Of a DNA stretch of 13,797 bases, positions 587 to 12,012 are shown in pieces. Positions within the stretch are counted from its first letter, which is position 1, and the number at the start of each line of letters is the position of its first letter. A program made the position numbers and the translations under genes. Below the pieces are notes generated by a model. The model was not told where the DNA came from. It made no database searches and saw only the letters and a program-made list of their open reading frames with translations. This DNA is from a virus, in UHGV virus genome UHGV-0071160. One strand, given 5' to 3'.

Positions 587-1279
587 TTAATTGTGTCGCT
601 TAAGGGTCTGTGACTGACTGATTAAGACCTTTCCAAAGACCATAAACCGGTGTTCGTTTTCGCTGGTAATTCCCCATTCGCGGTAAATCTGATTATCAGA
701 AATTACCAGCAGTTTATCAGGTATCATTTGCAGTCGTTTGACGTAAATTTTATCATCAAAACCAAATACATATATACCATCCCCATCAAACTGATTGATA
801 CTGATATCAACGAAGATGAGATCTCCTGGCTCAATGGTTGGACACATACTGTCCCCACGAACGTTGATAACTTTAATGTGATTTGCTGGTCGTCCACCAA
901 ACATCGATACAGCATTATCAGTTCTGTATTCAATGGCATGAATCACATCAATGACATCACCGCCCTGGATAAGGCCATTTCCCGCACTGGCACTGACATC
1001 CAGCATTTCAATACGGAATACATCCTTCACCTGCGTAACATCCTCACTAATACTGTTTTTACATACAGTATTACTTTTGAGGTCTGAGGTAAAGAGATCA
1101 GCAATATCAACACCTAAGCTCCTGGCAATATTACTCAGGGCTTGTTCAGTGAATTGTTTCTGCTTACCTGTTTCGAGGCGCGAGATATTCGCCGCATCCA
1201 CTCCTATTGCTTCAGCGAGATCGGCGATTTTCATGTTCTTCGCCTGGCGAAGTTGTCTGACTCGATTTCCTATGTTCAT
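587..1279 (-). CDS. cI-like prophage repressor (N-terminal XRE-type HTH, C-terminal S24 LexA-like autopeptidase domain)
   Basis: 230-aa ORF; N-terminus resembles an XRE HTH (KIADLAEAIGVDAANISRLETG); C-terminus has GDSM (catalytic Ser) and YVKRL (catalytic Lys) typical of S24 peptidases. Divergent from a Cro-like gene across an operator-rich spacer; no SD before the ATG, so possibly leaderless like lambda cI. Confidence 0.9.
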   Translation of the reverse strand: MNIGNRVRQLRQAKNMKIADLAEAIGVDAANISRLETGKQKQFTEQALSNIARSLGVDIADLFTSDLKSNTVCKNSISEDVTQVKDVFRIEMLDVSASAGNGLIQGGDVIDVIHAIEYRTDNAVSMFGGRPANHIKVINVRGDSMCPTIEPGDLIFVDISINQFDGDGIYVFGFDDKIYVKRLQMIPDKLLVISDNQIYREWGITSENEHRFMVFGKVLISQSQTLKRHN

Positions 1280-1637: not shown

Positions 1638-2187
1638 GCATCATTGGAAAGTGGAAAAACAACCTGAGTGGTACGTGAAAGCTGTCAGAAAAACTATCGC
1701 GGCATTGCCTGGGGGTTACGCTGAAGCTGCTGACTGGCTGGATGTAACAGAGAACGCTTTATTCAACCGCCTTCGTGCAGATGGCGATCAGATTTTCCCG
1801 CTGGGATGGGCAATGGTTTTACAGCGCGCGGCTGGCACTCACTACATTGCGGATGCTGTCGCACAATCTGCTGGTGGGGTGTTCGTATCGCTTCCTGAAA
1901 TTGAGGAAGTAGAGAACGCCGATATAAACCAGCGCCTGCTGGAAGTCATCGAACAGATCGGGAATTACTCAAGGCAGATTCGTTCGGCAATCGAAGATGG
2001 GGTCGTGGAGCCACACGAGCAGACAGCAATTAATGATGAGTTGTATCTGTCAATTTCGAAGCTCCAGGAGCATGCAGCACTGGTCTACAAAATCTTTTGC
2101 GCTCCAGAAAAGAGTGACGCCCGCGAGTGTGCAGCTCCGGGCGTCGTGGCGTCGATTGCTTCTGGTTGTGGAGAAACTAACGCATGA
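1630..2187 (+). CDS. Early-operon protein at the cII position (uncharacterised; possibly a CII-like regulator)
   Basis: 185-aa ORF; GTG start preceded by AGGAGG (1617-1622); overlaps the Cro-like stop and is ATGA-coupled to the next ORF. Function is assigned by position only. Confidence 0.6.
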   Translation: MGKHHWKVEKQPEWYVKAVRKTIAALPGGYAEAADWLDVTENALFNRLRADGDQIFPLGWAMVLQRAAGTHYIADAVAQSAGGVFVSLPEIEEVENADINQRLLEVIEQIGNYSRQIRSAIEDGVVEPHEQTAINDELYLSISKLQEHAALVYKIFCAPEKSDARECAAPGVVASIASGCGETNA

Positions 2188-3332
2188 ACAGTTTAACGGC
2201 AAATAACCGTTTGTCGCAACAGCTGGTGGTCAGCGTCGCTGAACACCTGTTGTTACGGCATGAATGCAGATTACCAAATCACCTGGCTGTAAGTAACCAC
2301 AGAGAACTTTACCTGACTGTGGGGGGCGAGTTGTGCAGGAACTTAACCGCTGGTTTCGTGACGGAAGAGGACTTTATGTTCATGTTATTCGTTGGGAGCC
2401 AGAAACACAGCGCGTTATCTATCTTCGCAAAGACTACCAGCATGAGTGCTTTAGTCCTTTGTGGAAATTCAGGCGTGATTTTGTTGAGTGTGAAGGACCA
2501 CCAGCACATTGATTCTGCCATTCCGGGACGTTACACTGTTCAGGCACCTTATAAAGCGGGTGTCGGGATTGGCGTCCTGGAATTGCATACGGCGACAATT
2601 GGCGCGTTAGCGTCTTTTTTGTTGCTACAACTCAGCTATACCCAAATTATGGTGGGCTGGGTGGGGGCACCGAAAGGTGCGCCGGTTTCCGTATGCGCCG
2701 GTTACGCCAACCCTGCTCAGTTCACCACCAGCGAAATTGGCGTTTCCGGTGGTGGAAGTTATCCATTGCATACGGAGGCTGCCATCATGGCTACGATCCC
2801 AACCCTCACTCAACCTGAAATTGCCATCGTTGATGGTCAGGCTGTTACTTCATCCCTGGCTGTTGCCAACTTCTTCTCCAAACGTCATGACGATGTACTG
2901 AAAAAGATCCGCACGCTTGAATGTTCCGCATCATTCACTGCCCGCAATTTTTCGGTGAGTGATTACACCGATTGCACAGGCCGCAAACTACCTTGCTATC
3001 AAATAACCCGCGACGGCTTTGCGTTTCTTGCTATGGGTTTCACGGGTAAACGTGCTGCCCAGTTCAAAGAGGCATACATCAATGCCTTTAACCAGATGGA
3101 AAAACTGCTTTCAAAGCCATCCACGCTGAGCGATGCCGCAGATAACGCCAGCGTGCTTTACTCCCACCTGTCGGTAATCCACAAGGTCTGGCTGCAGCAG
3201 CTTTATCCCATGTTGGCAAAAGCCGAATCCCCGCTGGCTGTAAGTCTGTATGACCGCATCAACGACGCGGCGCTACTGGCCAGTCTCATAAATTTGTCGC
3301 TGAACCCTTCAGAGGTAAGGGGGCGCAAATGA
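2184..3332 (+). CDS. Rha-family phage regulatory protein (Rha-like domain in the C-terminal 182 aa); ~200-aa upstream in-frame extension of uncertain status, alternative start at ATG 2787
   Basis: Open frame of 382 codons. Residues from the internal Met at 2787 (MATIPTLTQPEIAIVDGQAVTSSLAVANFFSKRHDDVLKKIRTL...) match the usual N-terminus of Rha proteins, with GGAGG 8 nt upstream. The upstream 200 codons are low in charged residues, but the frame stays open and the 2184 ATG is ATGA-coupled to the preceding gene. Confidence 0.55.
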   Translation: MNSLTANNRLSQQLVVSVAEHLLLRHECRLPNHLAVSNHRELYLTVGGELCRNLTAGFVTEEDFMFMLFVGSQKHSALSIFAKTTSMSALVLCGNSGVILLSVKDHQHIDSAIPGRYTVQAPYKAGVGIGVLELHTATIGALASFLLLQLSYTQIMVGWVGAPKGAPVSVCAGYANPAQFTTSEIGVSGGGSYPLHTEAAIMATIPTLTQPEIAIVDGQAVTSSLAVANFFSKRHDDVLKKIRTLECSASFTARNFSVSDYTDCTGRKLPCYQITRDGFAFLAMGFTGKRAAQFKEAYINAFNQMEKLLSKPSTLSDAADNASVLYSHLSVIHKVWLQQLYPMLAKAESPLAVSLYDRINDAALLASLINLSLNPSEVRGRK

Positions 3333-3849: not shown

Positions 3850-4829
3850 GCCGTTACGCCCCCACACCGGAAGTTATGGCTATTGGTCAAATTAATATTT
3901 CCGGCAATGTTACACCTGCGACCTGGTGGAAATATATTCGACTACCCAGTGGGCGTCCGGATGCGACGGCTATCGCTCTGCTTTCAGAGATCGTTTACTG
4001 GTACCGCCCGACAGAGGTCAGGGATGAGCACACCGGAGCGTTGCTGGGATATCGCAAGCGTTTTCAGGGCGACAAACTGCAAAGAAGCTACCAGGCGTTT
4101 GCTGAGCAGTTTGGTTTCGGGAAAAGGGAAACCGCAGATGCGCTGAAGCGTCTGCGCGATGCAGGGTTTATTACTCTGGATTTACGCACGGTGGAAATGC
4201 TCGATGGGGTGAAATGCAGCAATATTTTGTTTGTCGGGATCAACCCACAGGCAATTGCGGCCATCACCACACCTTCTTCTGTTTCGCCAGAAAGTAACAG
4301 CAATAATGCAATCAGCGATACAGCTATTACGTTAAAACGGAACACCCCCCGACGTCATAACGGAACAGGGGATACGCCGAATGTTGATACAAATACAGAG
4401 ATTACTACAGAGATTACAACGGAGACTAAAAACACTATTGATGCATCCGCTGACGCGTCTGCGCCAGCGCGTTCTGCCCGACAGGAATATTCACCGGAAT
4501 TTGAACAGGCCTGGCAGGAATATCCCAAACGTGCTGGTGGCAATTCAAAATCAGCAGCCTTCAAAGCCTGGAAAGCCCGTTTGAACGAGGGGGTAAACCC
4601 CGAAACCATGCTGGAAGGTGTGAAACGCTACGCGGGCTGGGTATCTGCGATGGGCAATAGCGGCACACAATTTGTGAAACAGGCTGTCACGTTCTTTGGT
4701 CCGGATCGTCATTTCGAAGAATCCTGGGAAGTTCCTGCGGTATCTGCAGCCAGACGCGAGGACCCGTACTTCAAAGCCAGTTACGACAACGTGGACTACA
4801 GCCAGATCCCGACAGGATTCAGGGGGTGA
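3846..4829 (+). CDS. Phage replication initiator / replisome-organiser-like protein
   Basis: 327-aa ORF, GGAGG 4 nt before ATG. Two-domain layout with a low-complexity linker (TEITTEITTETK) and a conserved-looking C-terminal domain (EYSPEFEQAWQEYPKRAGG...FKAWKARL). Sits where lambdoid phages carry the O-like initiator; contains internal DNA repeats (see repeat feature). Confidence 0.7.
   Translation: MSRYAPTPEVMAIGQINISGNVTPATWWKYIRLPSGRPDATAIALLSEIVYWYRPTEVRDEHTGALLGYRKRFQGDKLQRSYQAFAEQFGFGKRETADALKRLRDAGFITLDLRTVEMLDGVKCSNILFVGINPQAIAAITTPSSVSPESNSNNAISDTAITLKRNTPRRHNGTGDTPNVDTNTEITTEITTETKNTIDASADASAPARSARQEYSPEFEQAWQEYPKRAGGNSKSAAFKAWKARLNEGVNPETMLEGVKRYAGWVSAMGNSGTQFVKQAVTFFGPDRHFEESWEVPAVSAARREDPYFKASYDNVDYSQIPTGFRG
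4395..4430. repeat. Tandem 12-bp repeats (ACAGAGATTACT / ACAGAGATTACA / ACGGAGACTAAA) inside the replication gene; candidate origin iterons
   Basis: Three consecutive 12-mers seen directly. Just upstream, AACGGAACA occurs twice (4336-4344, 4359-4367) with CCCC/GGGG flanks. In lambda the origin lies inside the O gene. Confidence 0.45.
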
Positions 4830-5320
4830 TCATGAGTCTGATGAACGATGTACAGAAATTCATTGAAGCCCATCCGGGGTGTACTTCAGGTGACATTGCG
4901 GATGCTTTTGCTGGTTACTCACGACAGTGCGTTCTGCAGTCAGCAAGCAAGTTACGTCAGAGTGGCCGTGTGGCTCACTGTTGTGAAGGGAAAACACGCA
5001 GACATTTCCCACACCAGGCTGAGATATCGCAGGAGGAGAAACTGCAACCTGTTCTTGAAACCATACCTGTGCGCAATTTCTATGTCGGCACTAACGATCC
5101 CCGGGTGATTTTGTGCCTGACCCGCCAGGCGGAAGAACTGGAGTCCAGGGGCTTATACCGTCGTGCTGCAACGGTGTGGATGGCGGCATTCCGTGAAAGC
5201 CACTCCCAGCCAGAACGAAACAATTTTCTGGCGCGTCGTGAGCAGTGTTTACGGAAAAGCAGCAAGCGCGCTGTATCGGGTGATGAGTGGTATCTGTCAG
5301 GGAATTACGTGGGGGCTTAA
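4826..5320 (+). CDS. PerC-family (YfdN-like) putative transcriptional regulator
   Basis: 164-aa ORF; the motif EELESRGLYRRAATVWMAAF resembles the conserved core of PerC/Pch proteins as recalled. GTG 4826 overlaps the upstream stop; alternative ATG at 4832 with AGGGGG SD. Confidence 0.55.
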   Translation: MIMSLMNDVQKFIEAHPGCTSGDIADAFAGYSRQCVLQSASKLRQSGRVAHCCEGKTRRHFPHQAEISQEEKLQPVLETIPVRNFYVGTNDPRVILCLTRQAEELESRGLYRRAATVWMAAFRESHSQPERNNFLARREQCLRKSSKRAVSGDEWYLSGNYVGA

Positions 5321-5973
5321 TGAGTAATAAATATTGCCAGGCGCTGGTGGAACTACGGAACAAACCAGCCCATGAACTGAAGGAAGTGGGCGATCAGTGG
5401 CGCACGCCGGACAACATTTTCTGGGGAATTAACACCCTGTTTGGCCCGTTTGTTCTGGATCTGTTTACTGACGGTGATAACGCCAAATGTGCCGCGTATT
5501 ACACGGCGGAAGACAACGCGCTGGCACATGACTGGTCAGAACGTCTTGCGGAGCTTAAAGGTGCTGCCTTTGGTAATCCCCCGTACAGCCGCGCCAGTCA
5601 GCATGAGGGACAATACATCACCGGCATGCGTTACATCATGAAGCATGCCAGTGCCATGCGTGATAAAGGCGGGCGCTATGTTTTCCTGATCAAAGCGGCC
5701 ACCAGCGAAGTGTGGTGGCCGGAAGATGCAGATCATATTGCTTTTATTCGCGGGCGTATTGGTTTTGAACTGCCAGCCTGGTTTATCCCGAAAGACGAAA
5801 AGCAGGTGCCAACAGGTGCTTTCTTCGCTGGTGCTATTGCTGTTTTCGACAAGACCTGGAAGGGAGCGGCAATCAGCTACATCGGGCGCGATGAACTTGA
5901 GGCATGTGGTGAGGCATTTCTGGCGCAGGTTCGCCAGCAGGCGGAAAAACTGGTCAGGGAGATGGCGGCATGA
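5320..5973 (+). CDS. Phage Dam-like DNA N6-adenine methyltransferase
   Basis: NPPY catalytic motif (AAFGNPPYS) and overall resemblance to phage Dam-family proteins. ATG at 5320 overlaps the upstream TAA; an in-frame ATG at 5287 is an alternative start. Confidence 0.8.
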   Translation: MSNKYCQALVELRNKPAHELKEVGDQWRTPDNIFWGINTLFGPFVLDLFTDGDNAKCAAYYTAEDNALAHDWSERLAELKGAAFGNPPYSRASQHEGQYITGMRYIMKHASAMRDKGGRYVFLIKAATSEVWWPEDADHIAFIRGRIGFELPAWFIPKDEKQVPTGAFFAGAIAVFDKTWKGAAISYIGRDELEACGEAFLAQVRQQAEKLVREMAA

Positions 5974-6296
5974 CGACATTAACTCAATGCCAGCAGCAGG
6001 TGCTGGATATGCTGATTTCTTATCAGAAAGAACGTGGCTTCCCGCCAACCAATCAGGAGGTGGCAACCATGCTGGGATACCGTTCGGTGAATGCAGCGGT
6101 GGAGCATCTTCGCGCACTGGAGAAAAAAGGTGTCATCACGATAAAGCGTGGCGTGGCCCGGGGTATCACTCTTCATACCGCGGTGAAGGACGACGACAGC
6201 GAGGCGGTCGGGATTATCCGCGCCCTGCTTGCCGGTGAGGCAAACGCCAGGCTGCGTGCAGCCCACTGGTTACATGAGAGGGGCCTGAAAGTATGA
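5970..6296 (+). CDS. LexA DNA-binding-domain-only protein (LexA N-terminal wHTH paralog lacking the S24 cleavage domain)
   Basis: 108-aa ORF. Residues 4-65 align closely by eye with the E. coli LexA N-terminal domain (LTQCQQQVLDMLISYQKERGFPPTNQEVATMLGYRSVNAAVEHLRALEKKGVI versus LexA [53 protein letters not shown]). No Ser/Lys peptidase domain follows. ATGA-coupled on both sides. Confidence 0.8.
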   Translation: MTTLTQCQQQVLDMLISYQKERGFPPTNQEVATMLGYRSVNAAVEHLRALEKKGVITIKRGVARGITLHTAVKDDDSEAVGIIRALLAGEANARLRAAHWLHERGLKV

Positions 6297-6688
6297 AGCT
6301 AATACTGCCTTTTCCGCCCAGCGTGAACACGTACTGGCGACACCCCAACAAAGGGGCGTTTGCTGGTAAGAGCCTGATAAGCGCGGCGGGGCGAAAATTC
6401 CAGAGCGCGGCGTGTGCAGCAATAGTTGAGCAGTTACGTCGTCTGCCGAAACCAACGTCGGCACCTGCTTCAGTGGAGATCGTGTTGTTTCCTCCGGATA
6501 ACCGGATCCGCGATCTGGACAACTATAACAAGGCGCTGTTTGACGCCCTGACCCACGCGGGTGTGTGGGAAGACGACAGCCAGGTGAAAAGAATGCTGGT
6601 GGAGTGGGGACCGGTTATCCCGGAAGGGAAGGTCGAGATCACTATCAGTAAGTACGAAAAAGCGAGTTGCAAATTAGCAACTCGGTAA
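6293..6688 (+). CDS. rusA: RusA-family Holliday junction resolvase
   Basis: 131-aa ORF with the RusA signature (PPSVNTYWRH ... RDLDNYNKALFDALTHAGVWEDDSQV) and catalytic Asp cluster; ATGA overlap with the upstream gene. Confidence 0.85.
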   Translation: MKLILPFPPSVNTYWRHPNKGAFAGKSLISAAGRKFQSAACAAIVEQLRRLPKPTSAPASVEIVLFPPDNRIRDLDNYNKALFDALTHAGVWEDDSQVKRMLVEWGPVIPEGKVEITISKYEKASCKLATR

Positions 6689-6733
6689 CGGAATTGAGCA
6701 ACACCCTAAATTTGGGTATTACCTCGTTAAAGA

Positions 6734-6753
6734 TACTGTATTTATGAACAGTG
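6734..6753. promoter_or_regulatory. Consensus LexA (SOS) box TACTGTATTTATGAACAGTG upstream of the KilA-N gene
   Basis: Exact CTGT-N8-ACAG core (6736-6751) with AT-rich spacer, in a 160-bp AT-rich intergenic region before the KilA-N gene. Confidence 0.6.
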
Positions 6754-6850
6754 TATCCTTGATAACTATTAAAAATCGCAGTAAGTTCATCCTGCATCAA
6801 CGAAAAGGGAGTGCAGTCCCGCTCGTGGATAAAAATTTGTGGAGAAACCA

Positions 6851-7666
6851 ATGAATCAGTTGCTTGTAATTGATGGCGTTTCTGTGCGCCAGTACTTCGA
6901 ATCTAACTACTGTCTTAACGACCTTCAGAAAGCTGCTCTTCTTGCCGCTGGTGAGAATCGCTCCTCCCGTTCGCTGGAAGTTCACGAGTTTATGCGTCGT
7001 CCTGAAACGAAGGCTCTTGTGGAATTATTGGAAGAAGAAACTACGGGAGATTCCCGTAGTATTCCTGTCATCACCATTCAGGGGCGCAATGGTGGGACGT
7101 ATGTCTGTAAAGAGCTGGTCTATGCATATGCAATGTGGATCAGCCCGGCATTCAGCTTAAAAGTGATACGTACTTTTGATGCGCTTCATAATTCATCACC
7201 AGAAGAAACCACATCCGACAAAATTAAATCCGGGGTCATTCTGCTTGAATCAGCAGCAAAGACTCTAAATCTGTCAAACTCCTCGAAACTTGGTGCATAC
7301 CAGAAATTATCAAAGGTAGCTGGTCTTCCTGAACTTATGCCGATCTATGCCATTGATGCACCTGCTGATGCGCCAGATGGTTCAAGCCGCCCTACGCTGT
7401 CGCTGAGTGCACTGCTGAAGCAGTATGGTATCCGCCTGACGGCTAATCAGGCATATCACCAGATGGCGAAGCTGGGGATCGTTGAACAACGCGAACGATA
7501 CAGCCGTACCGCGATTAACAACATCAAAAAATTCTGGTCGCTGACAGCGAAAGGCTGCATGTTCGGCAAGAACATCACCAGTCCTGCAAATCCGCGCGAG
7601 ACGCAGCCGCATTTCTTCGAATCCCGATTCCCTGAGCTGTTAAAGCTGCTCGATACCGTTCATTGA
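6851..7666 (+). CDS. KilA-N domain protein (Roi/antirepressor-like)
   Basis: N-terminal KilA-N-like signature (VIDGVSVRQYF ... IQGRNGGTYVCKELVYAYAMWISPAF); ATG 6851 with GGAG 7 nt upstream (the track's GTG 6839 is an alternative). Confidence 0.8.
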   Translation: MNQLLVIDGVSVRQYFESNYCLNDLQKAALLAAGENRSSRSLEVHEFMRRPETKALVELLEEETTGDSRSIPVITIQGRNGGTYVCKELVYAYAMWISPAFSLKVIRTFDALHNSSPEETTSDKIKSGVILLESAAKTLNLSNSSKLGAYQKLSKVAGLPELMPIYAIDAPADAPDGSSRPTLSLSALLKQYGIRLTANQAYHQMAKLGIVEQRERYSRTAINNIKKFWSLTAKGCMFGKNITSPANPRETQPHFFESRFPELLKLLDTVH

Positions 7667-7667
7667 G

Positions 7668-8663
7668 GTGACCGTGAGAGCACTACTGACCCCTGAAATC
7701 GCCCCGCGTATGGGGATCGTATTGTTCAGGCCAGGTTCAGAGCTGATGCCCCTGTTTATGCAGGGGCGTGTCCTGCTGGAGCCTGAGCCGGAACGTTATT
7801 CATCTTTTGCCAGTGGTGCCGTTCCGGCATCATCACAACCGCTGGCGGATGATCCTGCCGTTCGGGCCGTGTTCCGCCATGAGGCGGTGATCCGTCGTGC
7901 TGGTGGCGTGGAATGCCTTGAGAGCTGGTTACTTCGTGAAAAGGGCTGTCAGTGGCCTCATTCCGACTGGCACAGCGAGAACATGACCACAATGCGGCAC
8001 GCGCCAGGCGCAATCCGTCTGTGCTGGCACTGTGACAATCTTCTCCGTGACCAGTTCACGGAACGGCTGGAAGCAATGGCAACGGATAACTGTGCCCGCT
8101 GGGTGTTGTCTGTTGTGCGCCGTGATCTTGGTTTTGATGACAGTCACGTTGTGACAATGCCGGAACTGTGCTGGTGGCTGGTTCGTAATGACCTGGCGGA
8201 TGCTTTACCGGAAAGTGCAGCCCGTAAGGCCCTGAGATTACCGAAGCCTGTTTTGCCGTCTGTCACCCGGGAGAGTGACCTTGTACCTTCGGTTACTGCC
8301 ACCAGTATTATCCGGGATAAAGCGAAAAAGGTGCTGGCGCTGAAAGTGGATCCGGAGTCGCCGGAGTCTTTTATGTTACGCCCCAAACGTCGTCGCTGGG
8401 TTAATGAAAAGTACACTCGCTGGGTTAAGACGCAGCCGTGTGCATGTTGTGGAAAGCCAGCTGATGATCCGCATCATCTGATTGGTCACGGCCAGGGTGG
8501 TATGGGGACAAAAGCGCATGATCTCTTTGTGTTGCCTTTGTGCAGAAAACACCATGACGAACTGCATGTGGATACCGTGGCATTTGAAGAGAAGTATGGT
8601 TCCCAACTGGAGCTGATATTTCGTTTTATCGATCGCGCACTGGCGATTGGTGTGCTGTCCTGA
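7668..8663 (+). CDS. DUF968-like (YdfU-like) prophage protein with C-terminal Cys/His HNH-like motif
   Basis: 331-aa ORF; C-terminus CACCGKPADDPHHLIGHGQGGMGTKAHDLFVLPLCRKHHDELH. Lies immediately upstream of Q, as ydfU does next to the Q homolog in E. coli Qin (recalled, not verified). Confidence 0.6.
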   Translation: MTVRALLTPEIAPRMGIVLFRPGSELMPLFMQGRVLLEPEPERYSSFASGAVPASSQPLADDPAVRAVFRHEAVIRRAGGVECLESWLLREKGCQWPHSDWHSENMTTMRHAPGAIRLCWHCDNLLRDQFTERLEAMATDNCARWVLSVVRRDLGFDDSHVVTMPELCWWLVRNDLADALPESAARKALRLPKPVLPSVTRESDLVPSVTATSIIRDKAKKVLALKVDPESPESFMLRPKRRRWVNEKYTRWVKTQPCACCGKPADDPHHLIGHGQGGMGTKAHDLFVLPLCRKHHDELHVDTVAFEEKYGSQLELIFRFIDRALAIGVLS

Positions 8664-8680
8664 TTTTGTGGAGAAAGTTG

Positions 8681-9073
8681 ATGCGTGATATTCAGATGGT
8701 TCTTGAACGCTGGGGGGCATGGGCGGCAAGTGGTAACACCGGGGTGGACTATTCTCCGATAGCTGCTGGATTTAAAGGCCTTTTACCATCCACCGCTAAA
8801 CCTCGCCCGGCCTGCAGCGATGATGACGGCCTTATCATCGAAAACTGCCTTACGCGCCTGAAGAAGAAAAAACCGGACGAGTATTCGCTGCTGGTAGCTC
8901 ATTATCTGCTGCGCATATCAAAAAGGCAGATTGCCAGAACAAGAAAGAAGAGCGAAAAGGCAATACGAATTGAGATGCAGATTGCTGAAGGATTTATTGA
9001 CGGATGTCTGTCGATGCTGGGTGTAAGGCTGGAGATGGACGACTGGCTGCCCAAAAAAGTAAAAAATGATTAG
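8681..9073 (+). CDS. Late-gene antiterminator Q (phage 82/21, QuuD-like type)
   Basis: N-terminus MRDIQMVLERWGAWAASGN...IAAGFKGL matches the recalled QuuD/Q family N-terminus. ATG 8681 has GGAG 8 nt upstream (the track's TTG 8666 is less likely). Followed by terminators and the late-region tRNA cluster. Confidence 0.8.
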   Translation: MRDIQMVLERWGAWAASGNTGVDYSPIAAGFKGLLPSTAKPRPACSDDDGLIIENCLTRLKKKKPDEYSLLVAHYLLRISKRQIARTRKKSEKAIRIEMQIAEGFIDGCLSMLGVRLEMDDWLPKKVKND

Positions 9074-9278: not shown

Positions 9279-9475
9279 TGCTGAAACAGCAGGATATGAC
9301 CGAAACCGCCAGAGTGGTGTTTAATGAATTAAGTGCCACCGAACCGGCGACAGTCGGGGAGATTGCGCAGAATACTTACCTTTCACGCGAACGCTGCCAG
9401 TTAATACTGACCCAGCTGGTTATGGCGGGTCTGGCAGACTATCAGTTCGGTTGTTACAGACGCCTTCAGTCCTGA
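9279..9475 (+). CDS. Small putative winged-helix DNA-binding protein (65 aa)
   Basis: ATG 9279 with SD-like AAGGGA upstream; the ORF ends inside a strong terminator hairpin. Sequence (TVGEIAQNTYLSRERCQLILTQLVMAGLA) looks like a wHTH. The longer track version (GTG 9185) has no RBS. Confidence 0.5.
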
Positions 9476-9490
9476 AGGCTTTTTTATTTG
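9462..9490 (+). terminator. Intrinsic terminator (candidate tR'-equivalent) overlapping the stop of the small wHTH ORF
   Basis: Stem GCCTTCA/TGAAGGC (9462-9468 / 9473-9479), 4-nt loop, then TTTTTTATTTG. Confidence 0.65.
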
Positions 9491-9625: not shown

Positions 9626-10684
9626 ATGCTTAATACTGTAAAAATATCCAGTTGTGAGTTAATCAACGCCGACTGCCTGGAATTTATCCGGTCGTTACCC
9701 GAAAATTCTGTTGACCTGATAGTCACGGACCCGCCGTACTTTAAAGTGAAGCCTGAGGGCTGGGATAACCAGTGGAAGGGCGACGATGATTACCTGAAAT
9801 GGCTGGACCAGTGTCTGGCGCAGTTCTGGCGGGTGCTGAAACCTGCCGGAAGTCTTTACCTGTTCTGTGGCCATCGCCTGGCGTCTGACATTGAAATCAT
9901 GATGCGTGAACGCTTCAATGTGCTGAACCATATTATCTGGGCGAAGCCGTCCGGACGCTGGAACGGGTGCAACAAGGAAAGCCTGAGGGCATATTTCCCC
10001 GCCACAGAGCGCATTCTGTTCGCGGAACATTATCAGGGGCCGTATCGCCCGAAAGATGCCGGGTATGAGGCGAAGGGCAGGGCACTGAAACAGCATGTGA
10101 TGGCCCCGCTGATTTCTTACTTTCGTGATGCGCGTGCTGCCCTGGGGATAACGGCAAAACAGATTGCTGATGCCACAGGAAAGAAAAACATGGTGTCGCA
10201 CTGGTTCAGTGCCAGCCAGTGGCAGCTACCGGACGAAAGCGATTATCTGAAATTACAGGCGCTGTTTGCCCGGGTGGCAGAAGATAAGCATCAGCGCGGA
10301 GAACTGGAAAAGCCACATCACCAACTGGTCAGCACATACAGTGAACTGAACCGGCAGTATACGGAACTGCAGAGTGAATATAAGCATCTGCGGCGGTATT
10401 TTGGTGTGACGGTGCAGGTGCCGTACACCGATGTGTGGACGCATAAACCGGTGCAGTACTATCCCGGGAAACATCCGTGCGAAAAACCGGCAGAAATGCT
10501 GCAGCAGATAATCAGCGCGAGCAGTCGTCCGGGTGACCTGGTTGCAGATTTCTTCATGGGGTCAGGTTCGACAGTCAAAGCAGCGATAGCGCTGGGACGT
10601 CGTGCAACTGGCGTTGAGCTGGAGACTGAGCGTTTTGAGCAGACGGTCAGGGAAGTTCAGAATTTAGTCAGTCAGAACGGATGA
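9626..10684 (+). CDS. Orphan beta-class DNA methyltransferase (N6-adenine or N4-cytosine; DPPY motif IV precedes FxGxG motif I)
   Basis: 352-aa ORF; DPPY at residues 35-38 (LIVTDPPYF) and C-terminal AdoMet motif (DLVADFFMGSGST), i.e. the circularly permuted beta-class order. No restriction-endonuclease-like ORF adjacent. Confidence 0.85.
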   Translation: MLNTVKISSCELINADCLEFIRSLPENSVDLIVTDPPYFKVKPEGWDNQWKGDDDYLKWLDQCLAQFWRVLKPAGSLYLFCGHRLASDIEIMMRERFNVLNHIIWAKPSGRWNGCNKESLRAYFPATERILFAEHYQGPYRPKDAGYEAKGRALKQHVMAPLISYFRDARAALGITAKQIADATGKKNMVSHWFSASQWQLPDESDYLKLQALFARVAEDKHQRGELEKPHHQLVSTYSELNRQYTELQSEYKHLRRYFGVTVQVPYTDVWTHKPVQYYPGKHPCEKPAEMLQQIISASSRPGDLVADFFMGSGSTVKAAIALGRRATGVELETERFEQTVREVQNLVSQNG

Positions 10685-11739: not shown

Positions 11740-11980
11740 CAGGGTATCAGTTACCCGTTGAAATTTTTAAATACCTCACAATTCAGGCGGTTGACTGTTG
11801 TCTGGTTTACGGGGAGTTTGTTAAAAGAAACTGGCATGGTGAATCCCCCTGTGCGGAGGGGCATATCAGCGACAGGTGTTTGGTCACACCCCTTATCCTT
11901 TCTGGTGCGGGTTCAGGTGCTGATACTGAACTCACCGGGAGGCACCCGGCACCATGCAATGGCACATAGCGCCACTCTCC

Positions 11981-12010
11981 AGCCCCTCTCCGGAGGGGCT
12001 TTCTTGTTGG
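11981..12010 (+). terminator. Intrinsic terminator (plus strand)
   Basis: Perfect 8-bp stem AGCCCCTC/GAGGGGCT (11981-11988 / 11993-12000), loop TCCG, followed by TTCTTGTTGG. Confidence 0.5.
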
Positions 12011-12012
12011 AT

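Follow-up and report, generated by a model that had tools for sequence, protein, structure and literature searches.

A LexA N-terminal-domain homologue and an SOS box upstream of kilA-N in the early-right region of an Escherichia coli lambda-like prophage

In enterobacteria, cleavage of the LexA repressor serves as the master switch that governs DNA repair, mutagenesis, prophage induction, and the release of toxins and bacteriocins. The subject of this work is a viral genome sequence of 13,797 nucleotides (UHGV-0071160; the whole stretch is hereafter called the window), which corresponds to the immunity and early-right (nin) region of an E. coli lambda-like prophage. It carries a gene for a 108-residue protein that resembles the DNA-binding domain of LexA and, 3' of that gene, an SOS box that precedes a gene for a KilA-N domain protein. 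Over the segment that holds these elements (bases 5900-7700), the window shares 98-100% identity with Shigella phage SfIV, with Escherichia phage PhiR49_1 and with many E. coli chromosomes, those of the O104:H4 outbreak lineage among them. The features at the centre of the analysis are the following:

5287-5973, plus strand: phage Dam methyltransferase gene (Pfam PF05869 at E 6.4e-45)
5970-6296, plus strand: LexA-like gene, 108 amino acids (Pfam PF01726; PHROG 362 at E 4e-59)
6293-6688, plus strand: RusA Holliday-junction resolvase gene (Pfam PF05866)
rusA-kilA-N intergenic gap, 162 nt
6734-6753, no strand: LexA operator (SOS box) TACTGTATTTATGAACAGTG, with CTGT-N8-ACAG at 6736-6751
6759-6787, plus strand: inferred sigma-70 promoter of kilA-N (-35 TTGATA at 6759-6764, 17-nt spacer, -10 TAAGTT at 6782-6787)
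6801-6825, plus strand: kilA-N leader hairpin (stem GGGA/TCCC, loop GTGCAG)
6851-7666, plus strand: KilA-N domain protein gene, 271 amino acids (Pfam PF04383 at E 1.3e-15; PHROG 129)

The stop codon of dam and the start codon of the LexA-like gene overlap in an ATGA, as do the LexA-like stop and the rusA start, so that the gap that contains the box is the first intergenic region 3' of the LexA-like gene. Since the latter has no intergenic space to itself, it is taken to be a delayed-early gene of the rightward operon that is presumably not expressed in the lysogen.

The LexA-like protein and its family

A previous reading of the DNA letters (the original prediction) had aligned the 108-residue protein with the winged helix-turn-helix at the N terminus of LexA, recognition helix included, an assignment on which Pfam, BLASTP, AlphaFold2 and Foldseek agree. 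The Pfam model PF01726 (LexA_DNA_bind) matches residues 1-65 over all 65 of its positions (E 2.9e-19; 69 bits, for a cutoff of 23.7). BLASTP aligns phage residues 1-91 with residues 1-87 of E. coli LexA at 43% identity, the alignment ending at LexA residue 87, and all matches of the protein among PDB sequences are LexA. The AlphaFold2 model, with a mean predicted local distance difference test (pLDDT) score of 83.7, comprises a winged helix-turn-helix at residues 1-68 (helices 6-22, 28-35 and 40-52, and two strands), a short, disordered linker (71-74), and two tail helices (74-88 and 93-103; pLDDT near 90). The top Foldseek match is the LexA-DNA crystal structure 3JSO, with a root-mean-square deviation of 0.9 Å over 68 residues and 50% identity. 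The recognition-helix string SVNAAVEHLRAL, correctly quoted in the original prediction, occupies residues 39-50. LexA contacts bases through S39, N41, A42, E44 and E45 (PMC3091678); the phage protein presents S, N, A, V and E at the same five positions, and thus keeps four of the five contacts.

The protein has no Pfam match to Peptidase_S24 (PF00717), and its chain ends at residue 108. Lacking an autocleavage domain, it cannot undergo RecA-stimulated self-cleavage, as had also been argued beforehand. On the basis of its domain content and modelled fold, the 108-residue protein is a homologue of the LexA N-terminal domain only. A phage LLAGE segment aligns with the VAAGE of LexA at the Ala84-Gly85 cleavage region; it is predicted to be helical, there is no catalytic domain in cis, and a role as a cleavage-site decoy was rejected, the AGE match being probably vestigial.

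Close homologues are present in E. coli, Citrobacter, Salmonella and Hafnia, and are annotated, as members of the family are everywhere, as "LexA family transcriptional regulator," and an exhaustive HMMER search recovered short relatives of approximately 105-135 residues, 40-52% identical, that align over their full length, tail included. In the family alignment S39 is invariant and N41 nearly so, and R64, G65 and I66 of the wing show little or no variation; the E. coli subfamily carries S39, N41, A42 and E45 exactly as LexA does. The tail follows the pattern EAvxxIRALLaxExxARxRAxxWLxxRG, which is specific to the family and conserved down to approximately 40% identity, and its two modelled helices probably serve for dimerisation in place of the S24 domain that the protein lacks.

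Among 5,426 complete E. coli genomes, 2,233 (41%) carry the gene, in 2,855 copies in all, always just upstream of rusA, which is the constant 3' neighbour in all family loci inspected. Relatives with 40-50% protein identity preserve this arrangement: Dam or a different methylase comes first, followed by the LexA-like gene, RusA, a slot of variable content, DUF968, and finally Q or a different antiterminator. In the slot, which separates rusA from DUF968, there is either KilA-N or a Rha/ANT gene, or no gene at all. Intact and syntenic members of the family are found in hosts ranging from E. coli to Cedecea and Leclercia, as well as in metagenomic relatives at 40-50% identity. In the literature searched there are no experiments on this enterobacterial phage family, the only characterised phage homologue of the LexA N-terminal domain being gp6 of GIL01, a tectivirus of Bacillus thuringiensis. 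Prophage promoters gated by LexA (Gifsy, 186, N15; PMC3121763) and a truncated phage LexA (GIL01 gp6; PMC6182141) were already known; what is new here is a family of such proteins in enterobacterial lambda-like phages, with a recognition helix close to that of the host, a dedicated helical tail, a very common occurrence and a tight linkage to rusA.

LexA operators and the kilA-N promoter

The box at 6734-6753 had been described as a textbook CTGT-N8-ACAG LexA site in the intergenic region that follows, upstream of the KilA-N gene, and this description holds on both counts. Scored with a symmetrised position weight matrix made from 29 E. coli SOS boxes (all scores are approximate), the site reaches 21.4 bits, above the median of the known sites (19.7; range 12.4-26.4), and is by this site model a high-quality LexA operator. 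The motif CTGT-N8-ACAG occurs three times in the window (0.19 expected), and three sites score at least 20, versus 0.003 per shuffled window, the next best site scoring 8.7. When CTGT and ACAG half-sites were counted with spacers of 0-14, N8 alone was enriched, and the other spacings were rejected as candidates.

The box lies 98-117 nt upstream of the kilA-N ATG (6851), and its 20-mer ends exactly 5 nt upstream of the -35 element of the inferred promoter. Box-like sequences occupy the same position, 5 nt from the -35, in loci of Raoultella (14.4) and Leclercia (12.3), and the spacing between box and -35 is thus constant in three lineages; in Kluyvera georgiana the copy at this place is degenerate, with a C-to-G change. 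Serratia, Erwinia, Edwardsiella and Rosenbergiella also have kilA-N orthologues that are preceded by SOS-like boxes, 75-130 nt upstream. Over 80 loci, taking sites that score at least as high as the weakest known box, the 250 nt upstream of kilA-N orthologues are approximately 10-fold enriched (five sites in 19.8 kb versus 12 in 463 kb elsewhere). This recurrence suggests that LexA control of the kilA-N gene family is itself recurrent, with host LexA as the obvious binder.

The promoter was recovered only through an alignment of eight lineages (the window, two Kluyvera, Leclercia, Raoultella, Citrobacter farmeri, Cedecea and Buttiauxella), in which T1, A2 and T6 of the -10 are invariant and the TTG of the -35 is found at 17-nt spacing in seven of the eight, the C. 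farmeri copy having a 14-nt spacer, while the spacers themselves diverge. A consensus promoter scanner flagged nothing upstream of kilA-N, because the -10 fits the consensus at only three of six positions. Transcription is predicted to start near 6794. Two genes follow kilA-N directly:

7668-8663, plus strand: DUF968/HNH gene (Pfam PF06147 at E 3.3e-80)
8666-9073, plus strand: late antiterminator Q gene (Pfam PF06530 at E 3.1e-52)

The three genes are packed with gaps of 1-2 nt and no strong terminator was found between kilA-N and Q, so that the promoter probably feeds Q as well, to judge from gene packing. At the 3' end of the window's rusA variant lies an inverted repeat, CGAGTTGC-AAATTA-GCAACTCG (6663-6684), that is followed by a T-run on the minus strand only, and which could therefore terminate transcription from the right or give the kilA-N promoter partial shelter from read-through that begins upstream.

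The leader hairpin is present in 12 of 12 lineages, with an invariant (G)TGCAG loop and covarying stems (GGGC/GCCC, GGCGG/CCGCC and others), 15-30 nt upstream of the kilA-N ribosome-binding site. SfII-type copies that have neither promoter nor box keep the hairpin too, and Rfam has no match for it.

AlphaFold2 models the KilA-N protein as a KilA-N domain that a long helical linker joins to a winged-helix-like domain at the C terminus. Pfam, PHROG and the model reveal no ANT/KilAC domain and no similarity to Tum, and there is no significant structural match in the PDB; the designation "antirepressor-like," which the original prediction had given to the gene product, is thus unsupported. It is of note that the prophage CI has an S24 domain of its own, so that an antirepressor is not needed for induction. 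Within the kilA-N coding region, a perfect 9-bp inverted repeat, ACTACGGGAGATTCCCGTAGT, is located at 7040-7060 and recurs at the same position in the Citrobacter, Kluyvera, Cedecea and Leclercia copies; the segment it encodes is predicted to be disordered.

Two further strong LexA boxes are found in the window, both with scores higher than that of the kilA-N box:

1051-1070, no strand: second strong LexA box, TACTGTTTTTACATACAGTA, inside cI; score 24.8, near-consensus
9634-9653, no strand: third strong LexA box, TACTGTAAAAATATCCAGTT, codons 3-9 of a methyltransferase gene; score 24.0

Five cI alleles, 68-84% identical (those of the window, ST64B, Klebsiella phage Kp4871-1, phage Flotzy and a metagenomic contig), carry the cI box at one and the same offset from the start codon, 209 nt, where it forms a conserved island within a divergent stretch that encodes the linker; it is possible that it serves as a roadblock or an internal promoter. 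The third box likewise occurs at the start of the methyltransferase gene in C. farmeri and in an O104:H4 locus, and near-identical boxes occur approximately 3 kb downstream of kilA-N in loci of Kluyvera and Rosenbergiella, where the methyltransferase gene is not annotated. The 352-residue N6-adenine methyltransferase shares 95% identity with an enzyme of 349 residues that the O104:H4 HUSEC2011 prophage carries at the same place, and by size and strain it fits the non-specific M.EcoGI/GII family. These enzymes are described as "not expressed" in normal growth (PMC5778455), a silence that could be due to repression by LexA.

In a metagenome/NCBI contig that carries a 42%-identical LexA-like gene (L091), a strong LexA box (score 20.8, at 5560-5579) occupies the space that separates a divergent RNase-toxin/immunity pair from the small open reading frame preceding the LexA-like gene, and a second one (24.4) follows the lysozyme gene. 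LexA boxes that adjoin accessory genes appear to be common in this group of prophages.

Possible roles of the LexA-like protein

The original prediction had joined the non-cleavable protein and the box-controlled gene into a single circuit. When the box cassette is defined as the intergenic region plus the window's N-terminal variant of KilA-N, it is found in 205 copies in 187 complete E. coli genomes, versus the 2,855 copies of the LexA-like gene. Approximately 93% of the gene copies in E. coli have no box downstream, and only some 7% have the cassette there. In SfII, SfV and the Stx2a/Stx2c phages a different KilA-N N-terminus begins 19 nt after rusA, without a box, while boxes before kilA-N orthologues of Serratia, Erwinia and Rosenbergiella have no LexA-like gene within 3 kb. 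An obligate gene/box pair is rejected by these copy counts and box-less relatives; in the favoured explanation, two separate LexA-related devices happen to be adjacent in this prophage. Of the original prediction, the LexA N-terminal-domain homologue and the operator at the kilA-N promoter stand, the dedicated pairing and the antirepressor label are not supported, and the case for the specific circuit is weak; what the 108-residue protein does can nevertheless be tested directly by simple binding or reporter assays.

The explanation that best accommodates the locus as a whole, and to which we give about an even chance, combines a promoter gated by host LexA with a phage surrogate of the LexA N-terminal domain. 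In the lysogen, host LexA at 6734-6753 would keep the kilA-N promoter shut; DNA damage would open it independently of CI, allowing transcription of kilA-N and, by read-through, probably of DUF968 and Q. The 108-residue protein, the product of a gene that belongs to the nin-region core of enterobacterial lambda-like prophages and is translationally coupled to dam and rusA, would be made only once the early rightward operon runs. It would then bind CTGT-N8-ACAG-type sites during lytic growth as a RecA-insensitive stand-in for LexA, re-closing LexA operators after the host repressor has been destroyed, namely the three boxes of the phage and those of host SOS genes. That the protein acts as such a surrogate repressor is roughly an even matter. 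In its favour are a recognition helix close to that of the host, the shared fold, the conserved wing, the enrichment of the N8 spacing alone, and the absence of any palindrome more widely shared than ACTGT-N8-ACAGT among loci with the gene. The domain content and fold of the protein, its lack of the protease domain, the quality of the box, the conservation of the promoter, the synteny and the copy counts are observed; the timing of expression, the dimerisation, the DNA specificity and the repression of the kilA-N promoter are inferred.

Several findings weigh against this explanation. Position 44 is never Glu in the family, and positions 40 and 42-45 vary in distant members, which is unexpected if a conserved host SOS box were the universal target. 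The absence of the box from most gene copies, described above, points in the same direction, as does the cI box, since three of the five phages that carry it (ST64B, Kp4871-1 and Flotzy) have no LexA-like gene; the boxes thus do not need the phage protein, and host LexA is their simplest binder. At the kilA-N promoter itself, the -10 is weak and the start of transcription is a predicted one, and the centre of the box, near -50 from that start, falls inside the RNA polymerase footprint, yet upstream of the core elements, which makes repression plausible but less certain than for boxes that overlap the -10. Finally, GIL01 gp6, the characterised precedent, recognises a different palindrome, GaCACAnnTGTGaC, and activates transcription (Fornelos et al. 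2018; PMC6182141).

This precedent is the starting point of the most serious rival, a minority possibility of real weight, in which the specificity of the protein has diverged. Its operator would not be the SOS box but a site at some unrelated phage or host promoter, where it might even activate, and the box would serve host LexA only, having come to lie nearby through mosaic recombination. Gp6, a truncated homologue 44% identical to host LexA, does just this at a late promoter (PMC6182141), and the variable recognition helix, the largely separate occurrence of gene and box, and the behaviour of the box and the window's KilA-N N-terminal variant as a swappable cassette are all in keeping with it. 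On the other side, the E. coli subfamily retains four of the LexA base contacts, only the N8 spacing of the half-sites is enriched, and no alternative operator emerged: among all palindromes with 5-nt arms and spacers of 2-12 in 13 loci carrying the LexA-like gene, none is found in more than five, ACTGT-N8-ACAGT being one of six that reach this number.

A wider version of the surrogate explanation may be held only tentatively. In it, a LexA surrogate that RecA cannot inactivate would be made by prophages in about 40% of E. coli genomes. Once such a prophage commits to lytic growth, the host SOS regulon and all LexA-gated modules of the cell would come under LexA-type repression again, so that the phage would in effect shut off the SOS response and gain a weapon against other prophages. 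The modules concerned would be the kilA-N-Q promoter, the cI box and the non-specific methyltransferase gene, as well as antirepressors and bacteriocins that LexA gates in competing prophages and plasmids.

It is improbable, albeit conceivable, that the protein is an activator at the same box, so that host LexA represses in the lysogen and, after its cleavage, the 108-residue protein takes over the site near -50 and stimulates a weak promoter, a repressor thus handing over to an activator. The box does lie upstream of the -35 and not over the core promoter, whose -10 is weak, and gp6 activates from a site centred at -43.5 (PMC6182141). Nevertheless, the reasoning is purely positional and depends on a predicted start, activators do not classically act from sites centred near -50, and most copies of the gene lack such a box. 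That the gene is a functionless, decaying remnant and the box a chance match is effectively refuted by a family that is intact and syntenic, with a conserved tail, across genera and metagenomic relatives, by three boxes that score at least 21 versus 0.003 expected per shuffled window, and by the conserved position of the box relative to the promoter.

Comparison with known systems places the surrogate explanation between several precedents. Like the 108-residue protein, GIL01 gp6 is by description a phage-encoded, truncated LexA without S24; it is made after induction, is approximately 44% identical to the LexA of its host, and acts beside host-LexA boxes in the same phage (PMC6182141). It differs in phage type and host, and in having essentially no tail, in contrast to the conserved two-helix tail of 35-40 residues described here; its recognition helix has diverged (Lys38 is critical) and serves late-gene activation from a non-SOS palindrome, whereas that of the 108-residue protein is almost the host's. 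With E. coli LexA, and with the N-terminal fragment that its cleavage yields, the protein shares the fold, 43% identity, and S39, N41, A42 and E45, and like LexA3(Ind-) it is not inactivated by RecA-stimulated self-cleavage. It departs from LexA in lacking the S24 dimerisation/protease domain (LexA dyad Ser119/Lys156), in having Val at position 44 and Asn at position 28, in a dimerisation that, if it occurs, would proceed through the new helical tail, and in being presumably produced from a phage early operon rather than from an SOS promoter.

The gated promoter has its own counterparts. Gifsy prophages have LexA-gated promoters in the equivalent region, and in the Gifsy dinI/antirepressor loci, as in coliphage 186 Tum and N15 AntC, a LexA box guards a prophage promoter that is not part of the immunity region and lies downstream of the replication genes (PMC3121763). 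There, the prophage repressor cannot be cleaved and what LexA gates is a proven antirepressor gene (PMC3121763), whereas here CI (587-1279) has a Peptidase_S24 domain, KilA-N has no recognised antirepressor domain, and the operon continues into Q. Temperate phages also interfere with LexA/RecA signalling through GIL01 gp7, Listeria AriS and phage 434 Hex (PMC4551915, PMC9043618, PMC3564112), proteins that act on LexA or RecA themselves, while the 108-residue protein would act by occupying DNA sites.

Should a widespread phage protein indeed sit on LexA sites and ignore RecA, the SOS dynamics of lysogens would have to be read differently, among them those of pathogenic lineages such as O104:H4 and of lineages carrying Shigella serotype-converting phages. 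A LexA-gated promoter leading into kilA-N, DUF968 and Q would likewise, if true, provide late-gene control with an input that bypasses CI.

Other features of the window

The remaining features of the window are as follows:

587-1279, minus strand: cI-like S24 repressor gene (Peptidase_S24 at E 6e-19)
1377-1637: cro
1630-2187: ymfL/cII-like gene
2184-3332: Rha/Ash region
Between the Rha/Ash region and PerC: replication genes
4826-5320: PerC
9462-9479: strong terminator
9626-10684: DNA methyltransferase gene, 352 amino acids
10725-10973, plus strand: three tRNA genes, downstream of the methyltransferase gene

Rfam matches the small RNA STnc100 (134 bits) at 11805-12011 on the plus strand, 3' of the methyltransferase gene. 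Together with the tRNA genes it occupies the place where Shiga-toxin phages bear tRNAs and stx; no stx is found here, and a link to Shiga toxin was rejected, the order in the 2013C-3264 copy being Q, tRNAs, a nanS-like esterase and lysis genes, without stx.

The long Rha/Ash open reading frame (2184-3332) may not be one real gene. Within it Rfam also matches isrK (58.9 bits, 2544-2620, plus strand) and the C4 antisense RNA (80.7 bits, 2645-2732, plus strand), an arrangement that resembles the immI-like c4/ant antirepressor control module of P1.

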